From the NCBI GenBank assembly GCA_963815195.1, contig CAWFGE010000008.1, positions 256,001 to 320,000 on the forward strand: a stretch of 64,000 bases of DNA. Reading direction: 5' to 3'. The position numbers and the translations under genes are program-made. This document shows, in pieces, positions 16,711 to 31,806 of this stretch (positions are counted from its first letter, which is position 1; each line of letters starts with the position of its first letter). This DNA is from an uncultured Planctomycetaceae bacterium. Lineage in GTDB: Bacteria; Planctomycetota; Planctomycetia; Planctomycetales; Planctomycetaceae. The notes below the pieces were generated by a model. The model made no database searches. It was not told where the DNA came from and was given only the letters and a program-made list of their open reading frames with translations.

Positions 16711-16783
16711 GGCGCCGTAGCCAAGTGGCCTAAGGCAGCGGATTGCAAATCCGCCATCGCCGGTTCAAATCCGGCCGGCGCCT
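16711..16783 (+). tRNA. tRNA-Cys(GCA)
   Basis: Cloverleaf: acceptor GGCGCCG/CGGCGCC, anticodon arm GCGGA-TTGCAAA-TCCGC, T-loop TTCAAAT. CCA is not encoded. Confidence 0.97.
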
Positions 16784-16786
16784 CTT
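16738..16786 (+). repeat. Left attachment site: 49-bp direct repeat (3' part of tRNA-Cys)
   Basis: Identical to 31758-31806 (gcggattgcaaat...ggcgcctctt). Confidence 0.96.
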
Positions 16787-18307
16787 CGGACATCAGCGGA
16801 CATTCGCGGCTCATCATCGCCCAAACCCTTAATTTTCAAAGGGTTTGGGCGATTCGCTTTTTTTGGCGTCGGATCGGGGTTTTCCCCACTTCCGGACATC
16901 TGCGGACATACGCTGCCGGGGGCTGGTCCAAGTTTTGGTCCAAGTTTTTGCGGAGCCTGCCCGTCCGTCCCGGTCGCCTGGAGGGATTCCGGGCGGTCCG
17001 ATCCGCCCGGTTTCGGAACGACGGGAACGCCCACCAGAGCCGCCGCCACGTCCCGGGCCTGCAAATGACTGTATCGGTCCATCGTGAGCTTGAATCGTCG
17101 AATGGCGGGCCAATTCCTTGGCCGTGTTGGGGTGAACCTCGGCCGTCGCGAGGGACGAAATGAAAGTGTGACGCAGGGCGTGGAAATCGAAGACGCAGCC
17201 GCGGGCGTCTTCGTACTTGAACAGGTCGGATCGTTCCCGTTGCTCCCGGACGAACGATTTCGCATCGTCGATCCAATTCGTTCGCGCGGCTTCCAGGTCG
17301 ATGCGAAGCATCTTCGCGGCGGTTCGCCACCACGAGCCGGGCCACAAGAGGGCGTCCGGGTCATCCTCCCGCCGTTTCGCAATCCAATCGGACAACCAGG
17401 CCGCGGCCTCAGGCGAAAGCGGTTGGACATCGAGCCGGCGGCGTTTCGAGTAGGCTGCAGCGACGGTGATGGTCGGGGGATTCGCGGCGAGGTTGAACGA
17501 CCTGGGCGTGAGGGACGCGAGTTCCTGCGCCCGCAGCCCCGAATAAGCGGCCGTGAAATAGAGCATCATGCGATCTTCGCCGGCGAGCCGCCGATAAACT
17601 TCCTCGGATTCCTTCGCGGCCTTGATGAGCCATTCCAATTCTTCGGGCGTCGCGGCCCGGCGTTCCCGCTTCACGTCCACGTCTTCATTCACCGGCGAGA
17701 GATGATGCGAAAAGATTCTCCGGCCAACGGCGTTCCTTGATGAGCCAGGTTCCGAAGTTCTTGATGACCTGCAAATAATCGTTGCTGGTCGCCGCGCCGA
17801 TCCGGCCGGAATCCGCGTTCATTTTTCAGCCAGTCCGCCACGCGATGCGCCTGCAGGTGTTGCAGCTTGATGAAATCGGCATCCGTCGAAAAGCCGTTGA
17901 AGGCGGTTGGCTTGCTGTTGAACATGGTCGGGGGAATTGTCTTTCGATTCGAGATGCCGGCGGAAATCCTCCACGTGTTCCGAAAGCATCCGCTCGCGAT
18001 GCTCTTCATAGGGATCCGAGTAGCCATTCTTTTCGCGGTTCGCTTTGCGGACGATCTCGCGGAGCATCTCGGCCGCTTCGTCCTTGTCCGCCGAAAGCGG
18101 CTCGCGTTGAATGACGCCATCGGCATCCCGATACTTGCCGTACCATTTTCGGGTCTTGCGTAGGCAGCGTTCGCCATCATCGGTGAGCGGGGCCGTGATC
18201 ACCCGGCCGCGGGTTCGGAAGCGGGCGAACTTCCGCCCGTCCTTCTCGACGATCTCGGCTTGTTTCGGGATGGGGGCGGGGTAGGTGTGCTGATACAGAT
18301 GGGCCAT
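16765..18307 (-). CDS. Tyrosine recombinase/integrase (split over 3-4 frames)
   Basis: 'YSGLRAQEL', 'DFHALRHTF' and 'LARHS', then after a frameshift 'LTMDRYSH'. N-terminal part 'RKWYGKYRDADG' is in ORF 17819-18385. Confidence 0.9.
16924..16948 (+). repeat. Tandem 12-mer (TGGTCCAAGTTT)x2, putative integrase arm-type site
   Basis: The same tandem occurs at 31701-31725 inside the other end of the element. Confidence 0.75.
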
Positions 18308-18405
18308 TGGATTCGATCCTTTCTGATACGCGCCGGCCACGCGGGGCGGCGGGGTATCAGTCCCGCTCGCCCCGGCAGCCGGCAAAGGTCAATAACACCA
18401 TAACA

Positions 18406-18711
18406 TCACCGATGGCCGATTTCATCTCGGATTCGCTGCTCTTCCATCGCCTGCCATTCGCTGCGGGTTGGGAGCGTTCCGTCTGGCTTTTGGGATGCCA
18501 GCCAGCGGACAATCACATCCCGAAGCCAACGCTTCGAGCGCGTGCCGATCGTCAGGGCCTTGGGGATCTTGCCTTCCGAATCCAACCGGCGGACTTGGCG
18601 TTCATCCACCCGCAATTCGCGGGCGAGTTCTTCGGCCGTCATGGTCAAAGGCGGCGGAAGTTCATCCGCAGATTGCGGCGGGGGGAACGGGATGGTTTCG
18701 GGTTTGCTCAT
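18406..18711 (-). CDS. AlpA/excisionase-like helix-turn-helix protein
   Basis: 'MTAEELARELRVDERQVRRL..GKIPKAL.IG.RSKRW'; located directly upstream of the integrase. Confidence 0.8.
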   Translation of the reverse strand: MSKPETIPFPPPQSADELPPPLTMTAEELARELRVDERQVRRLDSEGKIPKALTIGTRSKRWLRDVIVRWLASQKPDGTLPTRSEWQAMEEQRIRDEIGHR

Positions 18712-18882
18712 GTCAATTCGCTTGATCTATAGCGTTTGCGATTGTGAAAAATGATGAACCGTCAGTCGCCATTGCTGTTCCGATCCGCGGCCGGGCTGAT
18801 GGAGAAGCCCAACCGCCTGAAGAGTTTGCCGGCCTGGGCCGTGTTTGTAATTTCTTCCATTCGGCTTTTTGGTAACTAGGAT

Positions 18883-19176
18883 TTACCGTTCACGGCAGAG
18901 TTTCACGGCCTCTTTTGAGGCATGTTTCCATTCCCCGCCCCGCTTCTTTTTCAGCCGGTTCAAGGCTTTCTCCGCATCCTCACCCGGTAGCGGCTTCGGC
19001 GGCGGTGCAGTTCGCGGGGCGAAATCGGCCCAGCCGAACCGAGACAGGTCAAAAGGTACTTCCCCCCGATCGCTCTTATTTTTCGTGAACGAGAAGTACC
19101 GCAGGTATAAAACACACTTTGTTTCTTCGCCGATACGGGCCATGTTTTGGTGTCCTGACGCCATTGACACTGACAC
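18883..19176 (-). CDS. Small hypothetical protein carrying a duplicate of the DUF3987 protein C-terminal winged-helix-like segment (probably frameshifted)
   Basis: DNA 18928-19021 resembles 19289-19386 ('PRELHRRRSRYR..EKALNRLK.KRGGEW'). Confidence 0.45.
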   Translation of the reverse strand: MSVSMASGHQNMARIGEETKCVLYLRYFSFTKNKSDRGEVPFDLSRFGWADFAPRTAPPPKPLPGEDAEKALNRLKKKRGGEWKHASKEAVKLCRER

Positions 19177-19213
19177 TTTTGGTTTTCCCGCGGGATTGAA
19201 CGAATAACGTCAT

Positions 19214-21147
19214 TCAGCCCGCTCGCCAGTCCTCGAAATCCAACAGCCGAAACTCCCGCCGGGGGCGTCGGCGGGTTTTCACCAACCGCCATTCCCCGCC
19301 CCGCTTCCTTTTCAGCCGGTTCAAGGCTTTCTCGGCTTCTTCGCAGGTGCGGTAGCGGCTTCGGCGGCGATGCAGTTCGCGGGGCGTGATGGATCCCCCG
19401 TTGGCTTTGATGACCAATTCCAGATCCCGAAATTCCATCAGTTCTTCATCAGCCCCGCCGGGAACCTGGAAGGCGGAATAGATACGTTTCGTTTCCCGGC
19501 CGAACCATTCCGCCAAACGGATCCCAGCCCGCAAACTCTCCAGCCCCACGGCTTCGCTCTCGGCGTTCAACGTCACGAGTTCCACCAAATGCAACAGAAG
19601 AGCCAGCCGCGCCGCATAGCTTTCCAGTTTCGACCAGGCCGAAGCCAAAGCCCCGAAAGGTCGGCTTGTTCCTCCCCGTGCCGATCCATGAATGCAATCC
19701 ATTCGGTCCGGGCGTCGGGAGTCAGCCCCACCAGCTTGGGGCGGGGCATTCCCATATCATCCCGTTCGGGTTCCAAATCCAAGAGTCCCTGATAAACGTC
19801 GGCCAATTGAGCTTGAGCGGTTTCCCCCACTTCGGCATCAATCCAGCGGCGGGGCGTGCGGGGCGGCATGGCCATCAGAAACCGGGCGGCCAATCCGTTC
19901 TGAAAATGCTCCCGTCCCAAAACGGATTTCAGGATCTCCGGCTGAATGCCCCCGGTGATCGAAACCGCGGCTCGGCTGATGTGAGTCACGGGAACGGAAG
20001 TCTTTCGATCCACGGTGATGGAATCCGTATCAAACAGCGAAAGCCATTTCGCCACATCCCCGCCGTTCCCCGAACGGTACTGATTGAAACTCTGAAACCA
20101 GCCGCTCAATTCATCGCGCTGCACCAACAGCCCTTTCGGGTTTTCCATCAACCGCACGGGCAGGGCTTCGGTTGTGGTGTCATCGATCAACAGGCGGCGG
20201 GCGGTGGGCGGGGCCGGCGAATCGGGCGGCGGTTCCCCGCGGCGGCGGCCGGCCCGCTTCCATTCCGCCAGGTCCGCATCGAATTGGGTTTTGTCTTGGG
20301 CGTGGCGCTCGAGGTCTTCATCGAATTGGGCGAACCATCGGCTTTGAATCGCCCGCAGCGGCCGCAAGGCCATCTTCATGGCGGGGGATTTGCCCGTTCC
20401 CGATTCGCCGATGGTGCAGGTCCAAATCACGGGCGGGACGATCCATTCCTCTTTAATCCGAAGCGCCGGGAGATGCCCACGCATCCGCCCAAGGCGGAAA
20501 GGATCGGCAGAGCGATGAACGCGGGATCGCAGCCGGCGGACAGGGCGGCGCGGGACGTAAACTCTCCGAGCGGTTTCGGCAGACAATCCACGGGGAACGG
20601 CTCGAACGTTCCCAGTTCGCCCAGTTTTTCGGAAGGCGGGCAGGAATCAAACAGGGCGGCGGGATCATCTTCTCCCAACCAACGCGCTTGGATTTCTTCC
20701 CAGGATTCGGCGGGGTTCATCAATGCGGCTTGCACGGTCTTCGCTCGCGCGAGCAGCCGACGGCGTTTCGCACATTCGGCCACGATGCCCGCGTAATTCC
20801 GCACGTTGGCGGTGCTTTGCGGGGCTTCCATGATTTCCGCAAGAAACAGCGCCCAGCCATCGGCGGGCGCATTCTTGGGGGGCAAGCGTTGCGCCAGAAT
20901 CACCGAATCCACGGGCAGCCCGTCGCGGTCGAGTTCCAGGGCCAAAGCGAAAATCGTTTGATGCTGGTGCGTTGTAAAAATCGCCTGGCGCAATGATTTC
21001 GCCGGCGGCTTCGATCGCTTCGGGACTGTTGAGAATGACCGAACCCAACACGGCCCGCTCCGCATCGGGATTGTTCGGGGGCAATTCAATCGACCGTTGC
21101 CGGCCGTTGTCGGGTTGATTGAAGAGACGATTTATCATCGGACTCAC
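19214..21147 (-). CDS. DnaB N-terminal-like domain fused to DUF3987 (YfjI-like) P-loop protein; putative replication protein, split over 4 frames
   Basis: 'PPNNPDAERAVLGSVIL...DFY..HQTIF' (DnaB-N); 'FEPFPVDCLP', 'GESGTGKSPA', 'RDELSGW', 'SITGGIQP', 'GLAARFL', 'KLESYAARLALLLH'. Confidence 0.82.
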
Positions 21148-21305
21148 TTCGTTGAAGTCTGGTGAGTCCCGGCAATCGTCGCGGAATCCGCGTTCCCAAA
21201 ATCGGTTCTGGTCCGTAAGATGGTGTTGCGAGATTCCGGCAAACCGCCGGGGTTCCCACGGCCGGCCCGGTCATCACGGGTTGGCCGTTCCCTTTGCGCC
21301 CATGC

Positions 21306-21333
21306 AAAAAGCCCACGGGGGATCCGTGGGCTT
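21306..21333 (-). terminator. Hairpin followed by T-tract on the minus strand
   Basis: aagcccacgg-N5-ccgtgggctt followed by a T-run on the minus strand. Confidence 0.5.
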
Positions 21334-21354
21334 CAGTGCGCACGGCGGTTTGGT

Positions 21355-21552
21355 TTACTTGGGCTTCGCGTTCGGTGAAAAATTCCACTGGCGTTCTTCA
21401 ACGTCGTCAGCGGTCCAATCCCAAGACTTCGATGAATTGAGTCTTGGGGCCGGGAATTTGCCCGTTTTGAGAGAGTGGCGCAATTGCCAATAGCTGAAAG
21501 AGTCGGAAATCCGCGGGATTGGATTTCCGAAAAGTGCTTCTTGAGTTGTCAT
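21355..21552 (-). CDS. Small Xis/AlpA-like DNA-binding protein
   Basis: 'YWQLRHSLKTGKFPAPRL...WDWTADDVE'; GGAGG RBS upstream of the ATG. Confidence 0.5.
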   Translation of the reverse strand: MTTQEALFGNPIPRISDSFSYWQLRHSLKTGKFPAPRLNSSKSWDWTADDVEERQWNFSPNAKPK

Positions 21553-22142
21553 TAATAACCTCCACAAACATGTAGTTTTAGCTGGAGGGTCGATTCCGAT
21601 CGCTGGGCACCATTTGACAGGTTATAGCGGGCCATGACCGCTCGCGAAATCTTCATCAAACATCCTCCAAGAGGAAAATTCGGTCCGGTTGACGCTGGCA
21701 TTTAGACAGGCACCCTCCAGATTCCCCCAGATGTGGGGCAATGCCGGCCAAGGTCGCTGCAACAGTTCTAGCAAGTTGTGGGGGAATGTCAATCCGCAAA
21801 CACAAGATGTGCGGCCCACATTGTCCCGCGTTCGCAAAACTTTCGGCGATTTCTGAGGAGCCCAATGACAATATTCGTTTTCCCGCTTTGTTTCACGTAA
21901 AACTGTCAGTGTCAACGGCGTCATCGGCTGGGAAAGCCGGTCAAAAAAACTTGGCGATATTTTTTGCCGGTGCGGGTCCTTCCGAGACCCTGCCCCCGTC
22001 CCGCGGGTATCCAATCGCTGGTTTTTCGCCGATAAATCGGATCTTTATGGGGGTTCTTCTTCTTACTCTTTGGTGGAGCGAATCGGCGAACTCGCGGACA
22101 GAAGTGGCGGGATGCCAAAGGACCTGGCTACAACGAAGCGGG

Positions 22143-23148
22143 CTAATCAGCGGATTCGTCGGGATGTGGGAGATCTGGTTTGGTTTTGGGCGGTTCGAGT
22201 TCTTCGGCCGTCGGTTGATCGGGTTCGGGGGCCTGGTCCTCATCCTCTCCCATAACGGTGTACCCACTTTCCGTTTCCGCCCGCATTAACTTATCTCTCC
22301 GCTTCGCGATCGTTTCGTTGATCTTTCCGTACTTATCGTCGGTGTCGCCCCCGATGAATGGGCGAAACAATGGGGGCGTATGCTCGTCGATGAACCGTCT
22401 TAGAAATTTCCTGAAATCGTCCTGCGATCCTGCACGGTCGCGATGCAATGTTGCCACGGTATCTTCCAATTTATCTAGGCAGTTATCCTCAGCCGCATCT
22501 ATCCAAACAAGGGGATAGGGGTTTCCGTTCAAGACGCCTTTGAGTTCTTTTCGCCCATCGCACCGAAATTCGCAGAAGTCCTTTTCCAATTCGAGTTTCT
22601 CGATGGCGTCCAGCAGCATCAAAGCCAAATCCGCGGTCAGCATGAATTTCCGGGGGGTGGCTTGACTGGCCACGCGAAAGCCCAAGTCGATGGAGGGTCC
22701 GACAAAATCCCGAAGTGATTCGTTATCGGCCGTCGAAAGGGCAAGTTCCGTGTTGGTGACGGGAAAACCAGCCAACCAACCGGAGGCTTTCAGCCGGAGG
22801 GGAACTTCCTTTTTCTGCCATTCCTTCGGATATTTGGTCACGGCGTTTTTGAACGCGGCGATATGGGTGGCCACGTGCCGATGATCCGAAAGCTTCGCTG
22901 TAAAGAGAATTTCATCCCCGGAGAATTTCCAGGGCTTCACTTCCTCGGAGCAGTCGGGCAGTTTTGAGTCCTCGAAGTCCGCGAGTTTTCCATACTCGCC
23001 ATGAAGGAAGCGTGGGAAATCTCCGAAAAATGAACGGAAGGTTTCCGCCCATTGCGTCGGATCTTCCGCGTGAGAGATTTTGTAGGCGGTGGAACCGGCA
23101 AGATCGGCGCTCAGAAACAAACGAAGCTTCCAGCCCCAGCACCATCAT
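22143..23148 (-). CDS. Stand-alone class III nucleotide cyclase-like protein
   Basis: 'SADLAGST', 'WKFSGDE', 'DFVGPSIDLGFR' and 'LKG' motifs in canonical order. The start probably overlaps the upstream stop (ATGA) with a 1-nt indel. Confidence 0.8.
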
Positions 23149-23682
23149 CCGGCAACTGCTTTGAGGGATTCATTCCTGACTCGTGCGGCATCCTCTGAGA
23201 CGTAGAACTTCACCGCAAGATCGGCAATTGACTTCCCCTGTTGCATCTCGGCCAGAAACTCGTGGCACGGCATAAGCAACTCAGCCGCAAACCAATTCGC
23301 TTCCCACTCGATTCGATTGGAGCCGGAACGAAAGGCAATTATGGGCTTTTCGCCTTGCCGAGAATGTAGGAAATAATGCCCCAACTCGTGAGCGGTAGTG
23401 AATCGGTCTCTCAAGGGACTGGTGAACGAAGGAAGGACAATATCGAACTCCGTTTCTCCATGCACGTAAATGGAGCCATCTTCGGCGAACCATTCGTCAG
23501 CCGGTTCAAAATGAATGCTGCCCCCAAGGCGCTCGACCATTTCCCCAATGGGTTCGCCCACGCGGAATGTCAACGCCTGCGCCACTTCGCGCATACTCCT
23601 CAACTCGATATTTGGGCAGATTGGAAGGGCGGATGTTTTCGCCCTCAACGTATTCCTTACCTGGTCGGCGAAAGGAGGGCAT
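23145..23682 (-). CDS. ImmA/IrrE family zinc metallopeptidase (frameshift near 23585)
   Basis: 'RDRFTTAHELGH' and 'EWEANWFAAELLMP'. The N-terminus (MPSFRRPG...) is in ORF 23506-23787. Confidence 0.9.
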
Positions 23683-23817
23683 GGTGCTTGGTTTTCTATC
23701 GGATTTGGAAAGGATTGTTTTCAGCATCATTGCGGGAAGGGAATCAAATTTCCAGTCCTCCGCTAAAATAGAGATACAATTTCCCAAATCGGTTCGCCAT
23801 CGGTGCTTTTCCGATTT

Positions 23818-25135
23818 CTACTTCACCGCGTAAACTTTCAGCACTTCGTCGCCGTAGTGGTTGATGACCTTCACCGCGATTTTGCCCGTGTCGGCTTGGG
23901 GAACGGTTCGCTTTTTGTGCTGTAGAGGCTGGCCCAGGCGTCTTCGTCGATTTCGGCTTTGAGGGCGCGCTTCAGGTTGGCGTAGGGTTCTTCGGCCCCC
24001 GTGAAGTAGGCGTGGCGGACGAAGAAACTCTCGGCATCGTAGTTGGTGTCGATGAACCAACACGCGATGTCATCCGTCGAATCGCTGCGGATTTGGCCCG
24101 TGGTCGGGTCGTAAACGTCGATCCCGTGGATCTCCACCACCATTTCCCCATCTTCGGTTTCGTCCAAGGTGATGTCCGGTTCGCCGAAGATCATAAACAG
24201 GTTGCCGGCCCCGGTCTTTTTGAGCAGTTCATCGCCCATGCTGAGATCGGGATTCATCCGGCAGATTTCCACTTGCAGTTTGCCGTAGGTTTTGGATTCC
24301 TCTTCCACCATCGGATCGAACGCGAACCCGCAGACCAACAGCAAATCGTTCCCGAAGCCCTGCATGGCTTCCTTGGCGGCTTCGCGGACCAAATCCGGCC
24401 CCACGGTCCCGAACTCCGGCCCGATGCACACCGCCACGGTTTTCAGGTTGCCCGATTTGTCGGTGTATTCGCCACGGGCGTGAATCCATTCGCCGGGGAA
24501 GGGTTCCAGCACATCGAACTTGAGGCGTTCGGTCTTGATGCGGTTTTGAACGCCGGCCGAACGCAGGTTTTCGATGATGGCATTGCCGAAATGATCCGGC
24601 CCCACCACCCGCATTTTCACCCCTTCATTGGCCAGCTTCGCCTTTTCCTGCACGTCGATCCGGCGGTGGGGCGAAAGGCTTTCTACGGTAAACGGCCCGG
24701 TCACGCGGAGCGTGTGCTTGTCTTCGTAGGGCTGATCGTAGAGCAATTCTTGATCGGCGTTCCGGGCGATGGATTCATCAATTTCGGCCTGGCGCTTGCG
24801 GCGGAGTTCCCACCACTTTTTGAGATGCTTTTGATCTTCGCTGCTCCAATCGCCCTCGGCTTCGCGGGGGATTTCCCATTCCTCCCAGGACTGGCCGCGC
24901 GAGGCATTCAGGCTTTCGCGGATCGGTTCCAGTTTCTTCTGCCACTTTTCGTGAATCGCATCGATTTCTTCGTTGTTGGCAATGTGCTTGAGCATGACGT
25001 GCGGCACGCGCTTATAGACAAAGCCCTTTTTGATGTCCCCATGCGTGGGATAATCCGGCGGCGTTTTGCCGGTGATCTCGGCTTCCTTCCGCACCCCTTC
25101 GGCAGAATCGGCCATCAGATACCACGGATACCGCA
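23818..25135 (-). pseudogene. C-terminal half of a type III-like site-specific DNA methyltransferase (N-terminal catalytic half missing)
   Basis: 'GFVYKRVPHV.LK.IANN', 'RVTGPFTVESLSPHR', 'WFIDTNYDAESFFVRHAYF', 'IAVKVINHYGDEV'. It begins abruptly and no DPPY or SAM-binding motif is present. Confidence 0.8.
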
Positions 25136-25287
25136 CCACACCACCCGCCTAAGCCGGCGATGGCCCCGATTACCCGGTCCACGTCATCGCCCTATGCCCC
25201 AACTGCCACCACCGCGCCCATCACGCCGACGATGCCGCGTCCTTCAATCAGGAATTGAAGGATGGGTTGAAAGAGTTGGGAAGGTGA
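25131..25287 (+). pseudogene. C-terminal fragment of an HNH endonuclease
   Basis: Manual translation gives PHHTTRL / GDGPDYPVHVIALCPNCHHRAHHADDAASFNQELK... (one frameshift). Confidence 0.75.
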
Positions 25288-25322
25288 TGGGAAAATAAGC
25301 CGCGTTCAGACCACTATTGAAA

Positions 25323-26114
25323 TCATGTTGATGTGGAACTCCCACCTTTCTTAAACCTCACTCCAATCGATTCCATCTTTCCCTGGCTGGAATTGTGAGA
25401 AGCATCTAAGGGAAATGAAGCTTCATCAATACTTGTGGGAGTGTAGGCGGTTTCACGAACCGTCTGAGCGGAGCGATTTAGCGAGTGAAGCACATAGCCA
25501 GCAAGAGCAATTCGCCACGGTTCTTCACCTTCAATTCCCGCCTGTACCCGTCGTCGTTCGTCTTGGACGCCGTCTCCGTATGAGTTGGTGAGTGTCGCCA
25601 GATTCACTTCCGGAAACTTTGAGGGATCAAGATTAAGAAGTTGAATGTCGGCGCCCTCTTGATAGCACTCGCAGACGAATCCCACACAACTGAACTTCCG
25701 AAATCGTTTGTTGCCAGTCCGCTTGTCATTAACCCAATCGACGGGTGGATTGACGATGTAGTGCGTCAAAAACCCTTTGGGCTGTGTTGCCATTGGTGGA
25801 GTTTGAGTGTCGATTTCAGCGAGAATCGTTTGGATGCCCGCCACATCGTCGGGTGATAGATCGTCAAGAAACCCTGCAGCATGCACCTTGCACTCATCGA
25901 ACGCATGATTGGAAAAAGCACTTGCTTTCTCTCCTGCAATGATTGGCGGAGTACAATGCCAAACCGCGACAGAATGACCAAAAGCAAGATCAGAACCATC
26001 ACGTAGCAATGCCACATGAAGCACAAATTGATCCTGCTCTGGCCGGGCATACATACCCACTACTGCAAACTTCGGAACAGGTGTTGGGGCAGCCTTCAAG
26101 CGAAGTCCAGGCAT
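25323..26114 (-). CDS. Hypothetical protein, probable permuted papain-like (NlpC/P60) thiol hydrolase
   Basis: N-terminal 'HVALL' strand precedes the 'FSCVGFVCECY' helix, the His-before-Cys order of permuted members. Confidence 0.55.
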   Translation of the reverse strand: MPGLRLKAAPTPVPKFAVVGMYARPEQDQFVLHVALLRDGSDLAFGHSVAVWHCTPPIIAGEKASAFSNHAFDECKVHAAGFLDDLSPDDVAGIQTILAEIDTQTPPMATQPKGFLTHYIVNPPVDWVNDKRTGNKRFRKFSCVGFVCECYQEGADIQLLNLDPSKFPEVNLATLTNSYGDGVQDERRRVQAGIEGEEPWRIALAGYVLHSLNRSAQTVRETAYTPTSIDEASFPLDASHNSSQGKMESIGVRFKKGGSSTST

Positions 26115-26138
26115 TCGCGAAATCCCGTGTCGTGCAGG

Positions 26139-27449
26139 TCAATCTTGGTGTTCGAGTTTTCCTAACTGTTCCTTCACAAGTTTCGCAGCGGGGTGTTTCA
26201 TGACATCCGACTTTTGTGACCACGCTTCGAGCAAATTCATCAATTTGCGTTTAACCTGCCGGGTAAGCCATTTCATTTCGAGTTGTTGAATCTTCTCTAC
26301 ACACTCGTTCAAACGTGAATCTCCCAGCGCGGCCAACGCACACGTTGCGTTTTGGCCAAGGGCGGCTTTTTCACCCGCCACTAACCAATCCCGATCCAAG
26401 AACTTCACGGCCAACTCATGAATCCGATTTGAGAGATTTTCATGCTGTGTTGTATCATCCGGAGGCTGAACTTGGAATCGATGCGTCACGCAAAGCAATG
26501 TTACCAGCCGCGTTTCAATTGGCTTCGGCGGTTCAAGAAATGGCAAAAGCGTCTCGGCTTGCTCGGGGCGAATCATCGAGACATAGGTGCGAATTGCTGA
26601 TTGAACGATCGGCTTCATTTCCGTAGCGGTCGAGTGCAGAAGGGTCGAGGCAAGATCATACAGCCGTTGAGTGAGACGGTTACGAAGTTGCTCATCCGTG
26701 AACTGGACCATCTCTGCCGCCAAGATCATAGTGTTCCGCCAGCGTGCGCTAAGCCCTTCCCGTTCCAATTCATCCACGATGAAGTTGGCTACAGAATCAG
26801 GCTCCTCAAAGTGAAGTTCATTCAGGGCTTCAACACGTCTTTCAATTTCCGCGTGCGCATCTTTCACAATGGCCCAGAAATCTTCACCAGTATATATCTC
26901 TGCTTCGGTTTGGCCTTGTTGAGGATCCAGTGGAGGAGATTCTTGTAAAGACTCTTGACCGCCCCATATTGCAGCCGCTTGGTTTTTGCGTTTAATCCAA
27001 AAATTCGAGAAATTCGCGTATTGATTCCGAGGATCGTCTCTCAGATCGGATTGTGTCAAGAACCTAATATAATACCGAAGCCATGCGGTATAGCCACCAG
27101 GGCTCGACGGAACCCAAAGTGCACCAAACTCGGGCTGTTGGCTGACAAGTTTTGTTTCGGTAATGATCAGCGGGAAATTCTTTTGGGCGGATTCAATAAG
27201 AAGATCTACCAAATCTGCGTGTTCACATTCTGTGGTTGTGTAGAACTCACGATGAAAGGTTCCGGAATTGAAGACATTTTCAACAGCGGTACCTGCCGAA
27301 CTCGGTTGCTTCTCGTCCGATTCGAAGCCTTCTCTGGCTGTGGAGAGAATCCGGCGTGGAATTGGAGGATCAAGTTCATCGCAGTATGGTTTACGTGCAA
27401 CTCTGCGTGTCCGCTTCGCATAATCTACCAGAGTGGCGGTCTTGCTCAT
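26139..27449 (-). CDS. Hypothetical protein with helical (HEAT-like) C-terminal region
   Basis: Intact 436-aa ORF with an ATGA overlap to the upstream gene; amphipathic helices in the C-terminal ~240 aa. Confidence 0.6.
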   Translation of the reverse strand: MSKTATLVDYAKRTRRVARKPYCDELDPPIPRRILSTAREGFESDEKQPSSAGTAVENVFNSGTFHREFYTTTECEHADLVDLLIESAQKNFPLIITETKLVSQQPEFGALWVPSSPGGYTAWLRYYIRFLTQSDLRDDPRNQYANFSNFWIKRKNQAAAIWGGQESLQESPPLDPQQGQTEAEIYTGEDFWAIVKDAHAEIERRVEALNELHFEEPDSVANFIVDELEREGLSARWRNTMILAAEMVQFTDEQLRNRLTQRLYDLASTLLHSTATEMKPIVQSAIRTYVSMIRPEQAETLLPFLEPPKPIETRLVTLLCVTHRFQVQPPDDTTQHENLSNRIHELAVKFLDRDWLVAGEKAALGQNATCALAALGDSRLNECVEKIQQLEMKWLTRQVKRKLMNLLEAWSQKSDVMKHPAAKLVKEQLGKLEHQD

Positions 27450-28150
27450 TGTTCTGTCAATTCCCCGTAAGTCACTAAATTTGAGCCCTTCTCAATTGCT
27501 TCCCGTTTGACGACGCCAATCTTCTGCCTCGCCCGATTCATTTCGATCTGCAAATCTTCCAAATCGGAACTGTCCAAACTCACGTGCAACGTTCGGTTTT
27601 GCCCATCCCAGTATTCCAGCACCAGCGTGTTTGTTTGAAGTACAGCAAGGGTTCTGGATTGTTCCTCATTAAAGATTGGCCGAAATTCCGTCAGAATCCG
27701 GGCAGACTGAAAAAGAGTGGGGCGTTCGGAAAGAAGATCAAACGCCTTGCTAACCTGTGCGAAGAAGTTGTCCGGCTCAAAAAATGGGGAAAGATGTGGA
27801 ACAATCGCCTTCCAAGAATCCAGATGGTTTTCCCTCCATTTTTGGGGCGACTGATTGGTGAGGGTATGGTCAAGTGCTGTAAGAAATTCTGCAGCAGGCA
27901 ATTCCAGGCGGCGCCTCAATCCATTGAACGAAATCAAGGCATTGAGAATTCCGAGTTGAAGTGTGCGACGATCACATTCGAGGTCGGCGACCAAGCGATC
28001 GTAGACATTCGACAAATTCAATTCGAGTGGCTGCTGACATTGGATTCGTGCGAGTTTGGCCAAATTCTCCTCCCCCAACTCAATGAGGGCTTGAATGCCG
28101 ACAATATCTTCGTTTTGAATCGGGATTGTTTTCGGGGGAGATTCGGACAT
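27446..28150 (-). CDS. Hypothetical protein, possible prokaryotic COMMD-like protein
   Basis: Intact 234-aa ORF. Helical N-domain, then 'KAFDLL..FQSARILTEFRPIF..LVLEY..LHVSLDSSDLEDLQIEMNRARQK' (three strands plus a long helix). Confidence 0.5.
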   Translation of the reverse strand: MSESPPKTIPIQNEDIVGIQALIELGEENLAKLARIQCQQPLELNLSNVYDRLVADLECDRRTLQLGILNALISFNGLRRRLELPAAEFLTALDHTLTNQSPQKWRENHLDSWKAIVPHLSPFFEPDNFFAQVSKAFDLLSERPTLFQSARILTEFRPIFNEEQSRTLAVLQTNTLVLEYWDGQNRTLHVSLDSSDLEDLQIEMNRARQKIGVVKREAIEKGSNLVTYGELTEQ

Positions 28151-28384
28151 GTCTCAATTCCATTATACCATTGTTAGCCTTGGATTGTGGCAAATTCAAG
28201 CCAGGGCGGAAGTTGCGAAGAATCAACGCTCAATCCGTTCTTCCGGAGAGTGATGATACCGAAATCTACTTTGGACGAACACCCAGGCAGCGGGGAATTG
28301 GGATCTTGCATCCTCCAACTCAAGGGGGGGAGGATGACAAGGATCGTTCCCAATGGGATTGCCGGGAATTCCTGAAATCTGTGG

Positions 28385-29727
28385 GTAAAGGCTTTGAAGC
28401 ACCCCTGCAACACGGCCGGAAGGCGGGGTTCTTCGGTGAGCTGGGCATCCTTCCGGCCCACCTTGGGGAGTTCATCGCGGATTTCCGGCCAGAGATTGCG
28501 GTACTTCGGCATCGTCCCGACCATCGAATCATCGGCCACGGGAACGCGGGGCACTTTGACGATTCCCGATTCGATGGCATCGATCAGAGAGAAATCGGAC
28601 ACCACCCAGGGAAAGAGCGTTCCTTCCTGGTAGCCCGAACCGCTCAGGAAGAACGGCGTGGCCGAGAGATCATAAACCGCCTTGATGCCGAGTTTGTCTT
28701 CGATGGCTTTCAGGCCGGAAATCCACAACTGGGCCTGTTGGTTCCGTTCTTCGGCTTCCTTCTTGTCTTCCCGGCTGAGTTTCGGCCCGTTGGAATCGTC
28801 TTTTTCCTTGCGAAGATAGCAATGGTGGGCCTCATCATTGATGACGATGATATTTCGTTTGTTGCCGAGTTCCCGGCAAACGCGGTTGACCATCTGCTGC
28901 GGAGTTTCGCGGAAACGGTCGGGATCATCGCCGGCAAGAATCTTTTTCGTCAGCCGCGCTGCCTGCACCTGTTCCTTGCGATGGAAGGCGTGGTAATTGG
29001 TGATGATGATTTTGGCCGATTCCAGATGGGGAATCTGCCACGGGGGAAGGATGTCCCGCTGCCGGTAATAGTTTTCGGGATCGTTGGGGAGCAAAACGCG
29101 GAGCCGGTCGCGGATCGTGATTCCCGGCGTGACGATCAGGAAGGCATCGGTAAACCGGGCATCTTGGCGGTTGGAAAGTTTGTTGAGGATTTGCCACGCC
29201 ATCAGCATGGCCATCACCACGGTTTTCCCGCTGCCGGTGGCCATTTTGAACGCCAACCGGAACAGCCCCATGTTGAAGGCTTTGTTTTCTTCGCCGAGCG
29301 TGTTTTCGATCCAATGATCGTTGAACTTGCCGGCCACTTCGGTGATGTAGATGGCGGTTTCGACGGCTTCCCGCTGGCAGAAGAACAGTTTGCGTTCCCG
29401 TTCGGTGTCGCCCCAATAATCGAGCAAGCGCTGCGTGGCCCGTGTCACGCCGGCATAACCGCCTTCCCGCCAAATCCGAATCTTTTCCCGCACCTGGTTG
29501 ATGAAGGGATTATCGGCGAGGGCGTTGCTTTCCGGGTCAAAATCGAACGTGGCCTGTTTGGAATTCGCCTTCGGTTTGGCGATGGGAACAAAATAAGCGC
29601 TGGGCCGGCGGCTTTTGATCACCGTGCTGGTGATCCCATCTTCCTTGAACCGAAAATGCCGATTCGGTTCGACAAACGGGGAATTGAGAATCGGATTCTT
29701 GATAACATCCTGCTTCATGGCGTCCAT
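28385..29727 (-). pseudogene. N-terminal half of a type III-like restriction helicase/endonuclease (BPTD_3080-like), C-terminally truncated
   Basis: 'LFFCQREAVET', 'KMATGSGKT', 'INDEAHHCY', 'LSATP', 'DAIESGIVK.P'. Family-like sequence ends near 28385 although the ORF runs to 28174. Confidence 0.82.
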
Positions 29728-29967
29728 CCTGACAACGGGGCGAGAACCGTATCAGTTTCCATCGGCACGTGAAGCGCCTATCGGTGAAAACCCGGCCATC
29801 AATGCGGATCGGCGGGAAAATGCGAAATATGCGGCCGGTGGGATTGTGCGGATTTGGCTCCAGAAACGAGGTTTTTCAACAATTGACGTTGTGTAGCCTC
29901 CTTCCGCCACCTTTTGAAGTCCAAATCCGGCGGGATTTTGGAAGGCACTGCCTTCCAGGAGGTTTTT

Positions 29968-30186
29968 ATGGTTGCACCAACCTCGCAACCGCACGAGTGG
30001 CGAACGGGGCAGGACTGCCCTCTCGCCGGTGTGTATCGCTTCGACCGCTACACCGATGGCACATCGTCGCCATCGCCAACGCATGAGGAAGCATACATTC
30101 CGATGATCTCACCCGGCCGCACCTTTCCACCGATTAAATCGGCAAATAAGGGGGCCGTTTGGCGCTTTGAGAGACTCATCGAATGA
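29968..30186 (+). CDS. Small YjzC-like protein
   Basis: GGAGG RBS; 'TGQDCPLAGVY...G.TFPP...W'. Confidence 0.65.
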   Translation: MVAPTSQPHEWRTGQDCPLAGVYRFDRYTDGTSSPSPTHEEAYIPMISPGRTFPPIKSANKGAVWRFERLIE

Positions 30187-30196
30187 CGTTGTGACG

Positions 30197-30234
30197 ACGA
30201 AAAGGGGAGGCCCAATTGGGCCTCCCCTTTTCGT
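30197..30234. terminator. Bidirectional intrinsic terminator
   Basis: Perfect 38-bp palindrome acgaaaaggggaggcccaa/ttgggcctccccttttcgt between convergent genes. Confidence 0.88.
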
Positions 30235-30281
30235 TTTCTTGGCGGGGTTTCCTTGGCGGGCCACGAAAGAAAGTAGCACCA

Positions 30282-30717
30282 TTATGAAACAAACTCTTCT
30301 TCCCTGACATCAACATTCGATTTCAGTTCCACGCCGAAAATCTCCAAAAGCCGATTCGCACGATCGAGCGTGATGTTGTGGTACTCGTTTCGCTCATCGC
30401 GTGAGACTTGGGACTCATGGCAGCCCAACTTTTCGGCCAGTTCTTTTTGGGTGAGTCCACGAAAGATGCGCAGCCCAATGAGCAATTCGCCGATTCCGGC
30501 AAGATTGTGGAGTTCTTTAAACTCGCCCCGTTTCAGTCGTTCGTAGGAACCGATTTCTTCGCGGATTTGCTCCATGAAAGAACGGACGGGTTCGAGGGCG
30601 CGTTCCACTTCTTCGGGCGAGAGAGTTTCGCCAAGCTTCTCACTTCCTTTTCAATCGCTCTGTTTCGGCTTTCAAACGGCGGTTTGCTTCCTGATATTCT
30701 GATTCACTGCGAATCAT
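30282..30717 (-). CDS. XRE-family HTH regulator/antitoxin-like protein (frameshift near 30640)
   Basis: 'MIRSESEYQEA' N-terminus; 'LRIFRGLTQKELAEKLGCHESQVSRDE'. Confidence 0.82.
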
Positions 30718-30722
30718 GTGAT

Positions 30723-31280
30723 TTACTCCACAATTTTGACAATGCCCCGCGGCGTATGGTCGCGGGCTTGTCGGAATGCTGAAGGGAAAGTGAGTTCGTG
30801 GCCGTGTTCGTCCCGGAATGCCAGCATGATTGACCATAATGGGGATAAAGTTCCACGCGGTATCGATGCCACATCGGGAGTTGCCGTTTCGAGGAATCCG
30901 GGTGAGGCCTTCGGCTTTTCCGGATCCCAAGTCCAAACTTTATGCGGATCAAGCAAGTTCAATTGGCGTTGAAGTTCACCGCTCGCCAATTCGTGCAGGT
31001 CACATTCAAAATAACCATCAATGTCGTTCGGATGGTCCTTATCTTCCACAAATGACCCATCAATGAAGATCTCAGTGATTCCGACGGTGCGGAGTTGGTC
31101 CACGAGCGTTGCAAGGTTGAAACAGAGCTTTTCCCGCCAGCCCAATCCCAGTTTGGCGAGCTTGGATTTCCTAAAACGAGATGAGACGCGGCCAATTCGG
31201 ATTCTGTGAGTTCGTAGTCGCCCGGAGGGAGAAAGCCATCGGAATTGAAGGGTGGAAGATATTGTTGTTTTCATCGGCAC
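30723..31280 (-). CDS. DUF6932-like nucleotidyltransferase-fold protein (multiple frameshifts)
   Basis: 'LPPFNSDGFLPPGDY' (alternative frame) and 'IFIDGSFVEDKDHPNDID' (GS...DxD). Confidence 0.7.
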   Translation of the reverse strand: MPMKTTISSTLQFRWLSPSGRLRTHRIRIGRVSSRFRKSKLAKLGLGWREKLCFNLATLVDQLRTVGITEIFIDGSFVEDKDHPNDIDGYFECDLHELASGELQRQLNLLDPHKVWTWDPEKPKASPGFLETATPDVASIPRGTLSPLWSIMLAFRDEHGHELTFPSAFRQARDHTPRGIVKIVE

Positions 31281-31292
31281 TCCTCGGAGGGA

Positions 31293-31321
31293 ATCTTAAC
31301 AGGCTTGACATTTATGTCAAG
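31293..31321 (-). promoter_or_regulatory. sigma70-like promoter (TTGACA-N16-TAAGAT) overlapped by inverted-repeat operator CTTGACAT-N2-ATGTCAAG
   Basis: Read directly from the sequence; GAGGAG RBS just downstream. Confidence 0.65.
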
Positions 31322-31700
31322 ATTTTATGCAAGGTGGTTCCAGCACCGCCGGGTTCAAAACCAAAACTTTTGATTCAAAACCCTTCAAAAAATGTGCGCG
31401 GCTGCCGTGCGGTATCCGGGCCAAAAGCCCTCAGCGATTTTGCCACCCCCCCCGGTCGAACCGTGGGCCAGAATGCCGGCCCGCCGTTGAAACAAACTCT
31501 CTCTTTCATGCCGGGTCTTTACCACGCCCCGCCGATCACACCGATGTTGGGGAAGAACCTAGGCGGCGACATCAGGTCGGCTTCGCCGATGCTTCGATCA
31601 TCGCCAGGATCCCCGCTTTGATGGCATCGGGCAGCGTGGGCCATGACTTCGATGACGCGGGAGAGTTCCGGACATTCGCGGCCATGCGATGACGGCAGGT

Positions 31701-31725
31701 TGGTCCAAGTTTTGGTCCAAGTTTT
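31701..31725 (+). repeat. Tandem 12-mer (TGGTCCAAGTTT)x2, putative arm-type site
   Basis: Matches 16924-16948. Confidence 0.75.
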
Positions 31726-31757
31726 CGCCCAGATCCCTTGTTTTTAAGGGTCCGCTC

Positions 31758-31806
31758 GCGGATTGCAAATCCGCCATCGCCGGTTCAAATCCGGCCGGCG
31801 CCTCTT
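31758..31806 (+). repeat. Right attachment site: duplicated 3' part of tRNA-Cys
   Basis: Identical to 16738-16786; lacks the tRNA 5' half. Confidence 0.96.

Follow-up and report, generated by a model that had tools for sequence, protein, structure and literature searches.

In toxin–antitoxin–chaperone (TAC) systems such as HigBAC, CmdTAC and MqsRAC, as described in the report on them (10.1101/2024.02.24.581848), a SecB-like chaperone stabilises the antitoxin through a disordered, aromatic-dependent tail; once the tail is removed, the pair no longer depends on the chaperone, and the toxin is set free when a phage protein competes for the chaperone. A different group of oligomeric proteins, the prokaryotic COMMD-like proteins, has been set out by Liu et al. 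(Nat Commun 2026, PMC13392464). In the accessible part of that report, the COMMD-like obligate dimer assembles into a ring of 8 or 10 subunits, MBK5214510 (PDB 9q6a; also 9q6c and 9q6d) builds octameric and decameric rings, the function of these proteins is stated as unknown, and genomic contexts are covered only in Myxococcota (type VI secretion system-like), Chlamydia and Halobacteria. Its main text is free of the words operon, defen-, phage and peptidase, and its supplement has nothing relevant under toxin, peptidase or defen-. Here we describe a three-gene cassette led by a COMMD-like gene in a 64,000-nt stretch of DNA from an uncultured Planctomycetaceae bacterium (GCA_963815195.1, contig CAWFGE010000008.1:256,001-320,000, forward strand; hereafter the window, to which positions refer). 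The COMMD-like gene is called A, the gene for its 436-aa partner B and the papain-like gene C; L-numbers denote the loci that were read. The trio is real, conserved and, as far as searched, undescribed. Its best explanation, to which we give an even chance, is a TAC-like system with a COMMD ring in the place of SecB.

A (27446..28150), B (26139..27449) and C (25323..26114) are intact ORFs on the minus strand; A and B overlap by 4 nt (ATGA) and B and C are separated by a 24-bp gap. An initial annotation of the sequence had described three intact, co-oriented, tightly packed ORFs that are AT-richer than the host DNA, and both statements were confirmed. The GC content of the trio is 0.49 versus 0.597 for the genome, and only 0.16% of the 3,134 equally long windows taken along the genome have a value as low; at third codon positions, the trio has a GC content of 0.44-0.52 versus 0.72-0.75 in the flanking halves of a Res and a Mod gene. 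The profile of A matched MBK5214510 in PDB entry 9q6a at E 3.8e-18 over positions 10-221, and the single sequence matched it at E 1.5e-10 over positions 15-217. By sequence, the 234-aa protein A thus belongs to the prokaryotic COMMD-like family, as had been suspected from its layout; with its helical HN domain and COMM domain it is homologous over the whole length to the ring-former characterised in the accessible part of PMC13392464. The family comprises 3,724 representatives (50% identity) at E<=0.001. Given this membership, A may form rings of 8 or 10 subunits (PMC13392464), and we propose it as a ring chaperone or sensor. A has no Pfam or NCBIfam family and no PADLOC match at E<=1, and 140 A homologues gave no Pfam or PADLOC family, SecB included, their only PADLOC hits being two single-member ones to unrelated families.

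We then examined how far the arrangement recurs. Across 401 genomes from the class to which the window belongs, a broad COMMD profile gave 60 matches in 47 genomes. Those at E<1e-9, 47 matches in 38/401 genomes, were kept and all their loci read, and 13 weaker ones were dropped. L004 is a fragment of 60 residues. Contexts were sampled almost only in Planctomycetota, and otherwise from one Rhizobium plasmid and metagenome contigs. In all 47 loci the COMMD-like gene comes first, a partner gene is packed tightly behind it, and a third gene follows unless the contig ends too early; the middle and third genes cluster into matching families. A helical partner with a permuted papain-like enzyme was found in 21/47 loci, comprising the window-type solenoid with papain (15/47), a second helical partner with papain (3/47) and a small helical partner with a third papain type (3/47). 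A beta-rich partner with a metallo-beta-lactamase (MBL)-fold hydrolase occurs in 14/47, some of them interrupted, and the MBL-type beta-rich partner stands at a contig end in 2/47. Other loci carry DUF433 with DUF5615/PIN (4/47), a small helical partner with DUF7689 (2/47), a partner with a gene that is PemK-like by motif only (3/47) and two small membrane proteins (1/47). Looking for the trio elsewhere had been suggested in the initial annotation, and the same A-B-C order was indeed found in other planctomycetes, namely in L001, L002, L003 and 14 more loci of the class-wide sample. In protein searches, homologues of A, B and C also came from contigs with lengths in common. A sequencing or chance artefact was rejected on the strength of this synteny in 18 loci.

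Several COMMD-led loci adjoin restriction–modification, CRISPR-CARF or integrase genes. At L001:12842-20684, the immediate neighbours of the trio are a CARF–adenosine deaminase gene and a CRISPR locus of type III, Cmr-like by eye. No named defence system in PADLOC-DB 2.0.0 (2023) was matched by A, B, C or the 140 A homologues. The literature searched, which left out most subscription papers and could miss an unnamed listing in a defence table, contained no description of a COMMD-led toxin–antitoxin cassette. The proposal of an undescribed conflict system therefore stands as a candidate, as no PADLOC, Pfam or NCBIfam family accounts for the trio.

The sister cassettes suggest what the second and third genes do. 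In the accessible parts of two published analyses (PMC2701414, PMC5499597), DUF433 (COG2442) and PIN form a predicted two-gene toxin–antitoxin pair, VapB45/VapC45-like, described as a two-gene module without a COMMD-like partner. Such pairs are absent from the window but occupy the B–C slot behind COMMD in 4 loci. Because DUF433 and PIN fill the same places in these cassettes, B is in the antitoxin slot and C in the toxin slot. When the peptidase profile was used as the query instead, it yielded 29 matches, spread over 22/401 genomes and 26 loci, 3 of these loci being uninformative (contig end or truncated). The helical partner lies upstream of C in 23/23 informative loci, as expected of a cognate two-gene unit of the type II toxin–antitoxin kind that travels together, whereas COMMD is present in 18/23 and absent in 5. 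Three of the five COMMD-less loci are intact and unfused, L133 is broken and L134 is fused. Comparison of the COMMD-less pair L126/L128 yielded dN/dS values of 0.27 for B and 0.20 for C, indicating purifying selection. Some 190 bp ahead of B, L126 and L128 also share conserved sequence that includes a -10-like hexamer and may be a promoter of their own. At L134:2783-5235, a B homologue of 569 aa, lengthened at its N-terminus by a region that looks GAF-like by eye, adjoins a C homologue with no COMMD present; the added region is a possible built-in sensor replacing the ring.

The AlphaFold2 model of B has a folded C-terminus and a variable N-terminal stretch of low confidence: the per-residue confidence (pLDDT) is below 50 at residues 1-137 and 154-184, and blocks from residue 191 onwards have values of 79-97. 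Residues 188-433 (26151..26888, minus strand) form an armadillo/HEAT-type alpha-solenoid core, for which Foldseek returned armadillo/HEAT repeats (best E 2.7e-4) and VIA a Z of 12.3, a score level common among helical repeats. The alpha-solenoid assigned to B by the initial annotation thus holds for residues ~188-433 only; the N-terminal part, modelled at low confidence, does not bear it out. B has no Pfam or NCBIfam family, PADLOC gave a single hit at E 0.018, and ESM Atlas leads for B all lie below 0.8.

We modelled C(1-238) in complex with B(155-436), together with 3 controls. The predicted complex reached an ipSAE interface score of 0.87, compared with 0.00 for the best control; the ipSAE mark is reached by 116/157 solved complexes and 2/215 mismatched pairs, counts that are rough with the alignments used. 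Model runs share >=63% of contacts, with a partner pLDDT of >=83. The interface residues of B lie within 203-401 on the solenoid core and include R287 and W394, both invariant in 18/18 B homologues, and the contacts of C are residues 63-67, 89-117, 128-138, 152-156 and 187. The core of B is thus predicted to bind C directly. In type II toxin–antitoxin systems the two proteins form a direct complex, and such a complex is predicted here (ipSAE 0.87). From model, synteny and complex together, B is proposed as the antitoxin and cognate partner of C, and we consider it probable that B and C are a toxin–antitoxin-like pair.

The catalytic residues His33 and Cys143 of C are not among the listed interface residues, and B–C binding could therefore activate C instead of inhibiting it. 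This would suit a scaffold–adaptor–effector arrangement, close to what the initial annotation had envisaged, in which the A ring senses a trigger and B is an adaptor that assembles and activates C; solenoids are common as adaptors, and the genes are tightly coupled. However, the middle slot is taken by unrelated folds, including the predicted antitoxin DUF433, and the B–C pair is kept under purifying selection without A. We consider such an arrangement unlikely. An adaptor is not the best reading of a protein that occupies the antitoxin slot, has a predicted direct contact with C and remains next to C where COMMD is absent; B looks more like a dedicated antitoxin or inhibitor, with A in the accessory role.

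If B is an antitoxin, its N-terminal extension (residues 1 to ~157; 26979..27449, minus strand) is a candidate for a chaperone-addiction-like element. The extension is poorly conserved and unalignable across homologues, is modelled at low pLDDT, and varies in length with the presence of COMMD. In 18/18 COMMD-linked loci (15 of the sample and L001-L003), 139-242 residues of B precede the anchor L228, whereas the three intact unfused COMMD-less loci have 73, 69 and <=56 residues ahead of it. Aromatic residues make up 8.3% of the part of B that the short forms lack versus 5.6% of the core, and were more frequent there in 15/18 cases. The same trend appeared in two unrelated partner families. For DUF433, of which 30 of 40 matches were taken as loci, the farthest possible start lies <48 codons before the domain in 24/27 stand-alone cases, and 63, 69 and 121 codons before it in the COMMD-linked ones (3/3 measured). 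With the DUF7689 partner, 17/21 stand-alone loci have an open frame of <=60 codons ahead of the anchor, and 4/4 loci linked to a lead gene have one of 79-161 codons, 8/33 loci being unmeasurable. Judged from sequence, a long extension therefore tends to accompany the lead gene in three partner families, a trend that joint deletion would produce as well. DUF7689 itself was found in 24/221 genomes, with a small helical upstream partner in 27/30 planctomycete loci (L200-L229); the two are a candidate toxin–antitoxin pair in their own right.

Joint deletion leads to a second alternative, in which B and C are an ordinary toxin–antitoxin or addiction pair and A, either a regulator that travels along or a unit of its own, does not act through the extension of B. 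A single deletion that took A and the 5' end of B would produce this correlation even if the two proteins never bound each other. In the trees, COMMD-less pairs fall inside groups of COMMD-linked ones, which is what deletions would give, and the extension has no conserved sequence. In PMC13392464, moreover, none of the COMMD-like proteins of Myxococcota, Chlamydia and Halobacteria was predicted by AlphaFold to form a complex with its neighbours. This explanation has more difficulty with the extension being kept open over 139-242 codons in 18/18 linked loci, with the parallel trend in two unrelated partner families whose short stand-alone forms are the norm, and with the tightly packed partner gene behind COMMD in 47/47 loci. 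We treat it as a minority possibility. Whether A instead acts through the extension of B appears to us evenly balanced.

The enzymatic nature of C was assessed from conserved residues and fold. His33, Cys143 and Tyr151 are invariant in 27/27 C homologues, and the His precedes the Cys. The best VIA match of the model was YiiX (2if6; Z 6.2, root-mean-square deviation 4.7, 140 aligned residues), which lies below the safe level of Z 8. The VIA rows include YiiX 2if6, B. cereus 3kw0, TseH 6v98, DeSI 2wp7, PLAAT4 7zot and MARTX RID 5xn7, and 6/8 rows are what we take to be permuted papain-like enzymes. With known permuted NlpC/P60 enzymes, C shares the His-before-Cys order and, as far as the weak match goes, the fold class; it differs from them in its 6-14% identity, Z of <=6.2, absence of a Pfam match and possession of a solenoid partner. 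C has no Pfam or NCBIfam family and no PADLOC match at E<=1, its profiles matched PDB sequences only at E>=0.07, and a relative, L007, showed a weak Peptidase_C92 match (E 0.018). The invariant His33/Cys143 and the weak fold match to the model lend weaker support to the permuted papain-like (NlpC/P60) thiol enzyme suggested by the initial annotation than the match to 9q6a lends to A; we propose this 263-aa enzyme as the toxin. By eye, no signal peptide or trafficking domain was seen in C. A secreted polymorphic toxin with an immunity protein was rejected for this reason and because the partner gene precedes C.

The closest folds of C include a deSUMOylase and PLAAT4, which raises the alternative that the module has a housekeeping or stress role, C being for instance a deconjugase of proteins or an acyltransferase of lipids and B its binding partner. 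Several loci, among them L002, L003, L013 and L014, also sit among ordinary genes. Against this stand the patchy presence of the family (38/401 genomes), the foreign base composition of the trio, its location in a mobile element and the interchange of C with PIN and MBL enzymes, and we regard a housekeeping role as very improbable.

The favoured TAC-like reading can be put as a sequence of steps. A, COMMD-like by sequence, would form a ring, as its family does, and control a type II-like B–C pair. The solenoid core of B is predicted to grip C beside the catalytic residues and would thereby hold it inactive. The gene patterns suggest that, because of its N-terminal extension, B would be stable and soluble only with the A ring bound to it. 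The ring would in this way keep B available to C, and loss or titration of A would release C. By analogy, a phage protein or stress might compete for the ring, so that B is freed for degradation and C is released; in the cytoplasm, C would then hit an essential target by thiol-dependent hydrolysis or acyl transfer and arrest the infected cell. Dependence on A would make the cassette addictive, which could explain why the trio is intact amid broken neighbours. On the analogy with TAC, we lean slightly towards an anti-phage role of the cassette.

Like the cassette, TAC systems (10.1101/2024.02.24.581848) comprise three genes, two of which form a toxin–antitoxin unit (a putative one here) that can be swapped, while the third encodes an accessory protein that oligomerises (a presumed ring here); their setting is mobile as well. 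The TAC tail is disordered, aromatic-rich and dispensable, and its counterpart here would be the low-confidence, aromatic-rich extension of B that some relatives lack. In contrast to TAC, the accessory protein is COMMD-like instead of SecB-like, its gene comes first (COMMD-like, partner, enzyme) instead of last, the extension is N-terminal whereas the addiction tail of TAC is C-terminal, and the candidate antitoxin and toxin are an alpha-solenoid and a thiol enzyme. Membership in TAC was rejected because SecB identity, gene order and tail position all differ. The cassette would thus work like TAC yet not be TAC, since its accessory protein is not SecB-like and comes first and its tail is N-terminal.

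Besides the points already given for the alternatives, several observations weigh against a COMMD-controlled toxin–antitoxin system. The antitoxins of type II systems usually, if not universally, bind DNA, and Pfam recognised no domain in B, DNA-binding or other, the N-terminal part being poorly modelled. The MBL and DUF7689 enzymes in the third position are not proven toxins. A relatives are absent from the viral contigs and phage records searched, and a plasmid search with three COMMD-like queries gave no match. The fold match of C was obtained on a mediocre model (mean pLDDT 63), and Foldseek returned nothing for C at E<=0.001. The length contrast in B rests on about two independent events, as the three COMMD-less loci with a short B fall into two separate well-supported clades (trees without L133). 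Start codons were inferred throughout the length comparison: the longest open frame of L128 gives 144 residues, the value of 69 being counted from the Met aligned with the start of L126. The fused COMMD-less L134 has 337 N-terminal residues. Internal ATGs occur near the domain in L158 (at 15 and 26) and L139 (at 12), and a nearest-ATG rule would therefore weaken 2/7 linked cases.

The lead position is not exclusive to COMMD. TIGR04255 is present in 34/151 class genomes, and 30 of its loci were read (L170-L199). In TIGR04255-led three-gene cassettes, TIGR04255 stands where COMMD does in COMMD-led ones, and some partner–enzyme pairs are common to both kinds; 4 of the 30 loci match partner and enzyme profiles, one with DUF7689 and three with MBL. 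These results indicate that the lead gene is swappable and that TIGR04255 fills the COMMD slot. The two lead proteins are not detectably related, and no COMMD-profile hit was obtained in L015. By eye, the 30 loci include 2 PIN pairs and 1 membrane pair; we also took the third gene to be ADP-ribosyltransferase (ART)-like in ~11 loci and PemK-like in 7. The PemK-like and ART-like labels were not confirmed by PDB, Pfam or PADLOC, where one of 12 matched PDC-M32B (E 0.003), and small PemK/ART-type profiles labelled none of the TIGR04255 loci. For TIGR04255, ESM Atlas returned self-family names only, and no paper with this term was found in the literature searched, which excluded most subscription papers. 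The window's own genome carries a TIGR04255-led cassette (L197, G000:C17:128576-129178) with a partner and a third gene that is ART-like by eye, an unconfirmed label.

On a Rhizobium plasmid (L015), TIGR04255 is followed by a small helical partner, by eye of the type seen behind COMMD, and a papain homologue. This cassette (L015:3657-8639) adjoins multiubiquitin, ThiF and DUF6527 genes, and these neighbours raise a ubiquitin-like deconjugase role for that papain type.

In the accessible part of the report on the eukaryotic complex (10.64898/2026.02.02.703414), COMMD HN domains bind the N-terminal regions of CCDC proteins. Such binding by human COMMD HN domains makes tail binding plausible for the COMMD fold. 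A wider proposal, held tentatively and with the balance leaning against it, would make the COMMD-like rings of prokaryotes a second class of antitoxin chaperone and phage sensor, independent of SecB, that binds disordered N-terminal tails on many unrelated antitoxins, with TIGR04255 as a third class; binding of an N-terminal segment, as with CCDC22/CCDC93, would be ancestral, and the core of Commander would derive from a bacterial immunity component. If the COMMD-controlled reading is correct, prokaryotic relatives of the Commander core would gain a function, chaperone-controlled toxin–antitoxin immunity would extend beyond SecB, solenoid antitoxin and permuted-papain toxin would be a new pair, and TIGR04255-led cassettes would be a parallel class. 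The 2026 paper set out bacterial COMMD-like rings and left their function open, and the cassette offers a concrete and cheap test, since its three genes are small, the catalytic Cys is predicted, the tail to be deleted is defined and tail-less relatives provide natural controls.

In the window, the trio lies in an integrated element of 15,020 bp at a tRNA-Cys gene (16738..31806), delimited by repeat search and by ORF and domain annotation. It is bounded by a perfect 49-bp duplication, the att copies 16738-16786 and 31758-31806, and contains integrase remnants, HTH_17, DnaB-N and DUF3987. On one side of the trio is the 5' half of a Res gene of the BPTD_3080 family (28174..29727, minus strand; NF046055 E 3.8e-173, profile positions 2-447 of 970), whose homology stops at about residue 453, and on the other the 3' half of a type III Mod gene (23871..25139, minus strand; PADLOC MTase_III E 1.4e-134, profile positions 532-962 of 983). 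No second copy of either half was found in the genome assembly by tblastn. Between C and Mod, convergent with C, translation revealed the 3' remnant of a gene (25153..25287, plus strand) that we presume to be HNH-like from its motif by eye, with no library score. The initial annotation had placed the trio where a restriction–modification pair was broken inside a mobile element. The Res and Mod halves and the 49-bp att duplication uphold the broken pair and the element. Because the HNH-like remnant separates C from Mod, the trio need not have broken the pair by inserting: it may already have stood between the two genes and survived a deletion on either side. One DNA sequencing run contained short pieces only, which do not reach across the junctions.

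An extended -10-like motif read from the sequence (28162..28170, minus strand) ends 11 nt ahead of the ATG of A and is a candidate promoter with a very short leader. It is absent from the consensus-scan list, as the scan needs a -35 at 16-18 nt, and the promoter and terminator scan of the locus gave a result at shuffle level.

Other genes of the element also recall conflict systems. At 22143-23648 (minus strand), a stand-alone IrrE/ImmA-type metallopeptidase gene (PF06114 E 1e-20; PADLOC capP E 3e-24) is followed by an intact 325-aa ORF that has no family match and is nucleotide-cyclase-like by eye; the two may be another undamaged conflict module of this element. A DUF6932 gene and, after it, HTH_3 gene pieces (30282-31280, minus strand) look like a further, damaged toxin–antitoxin-type pair. 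Finally, two short direct repeats of 54 and 37 nt, with spacings of 361 and 365, lie at 18928-19386 inside the broken DUF3987 region.

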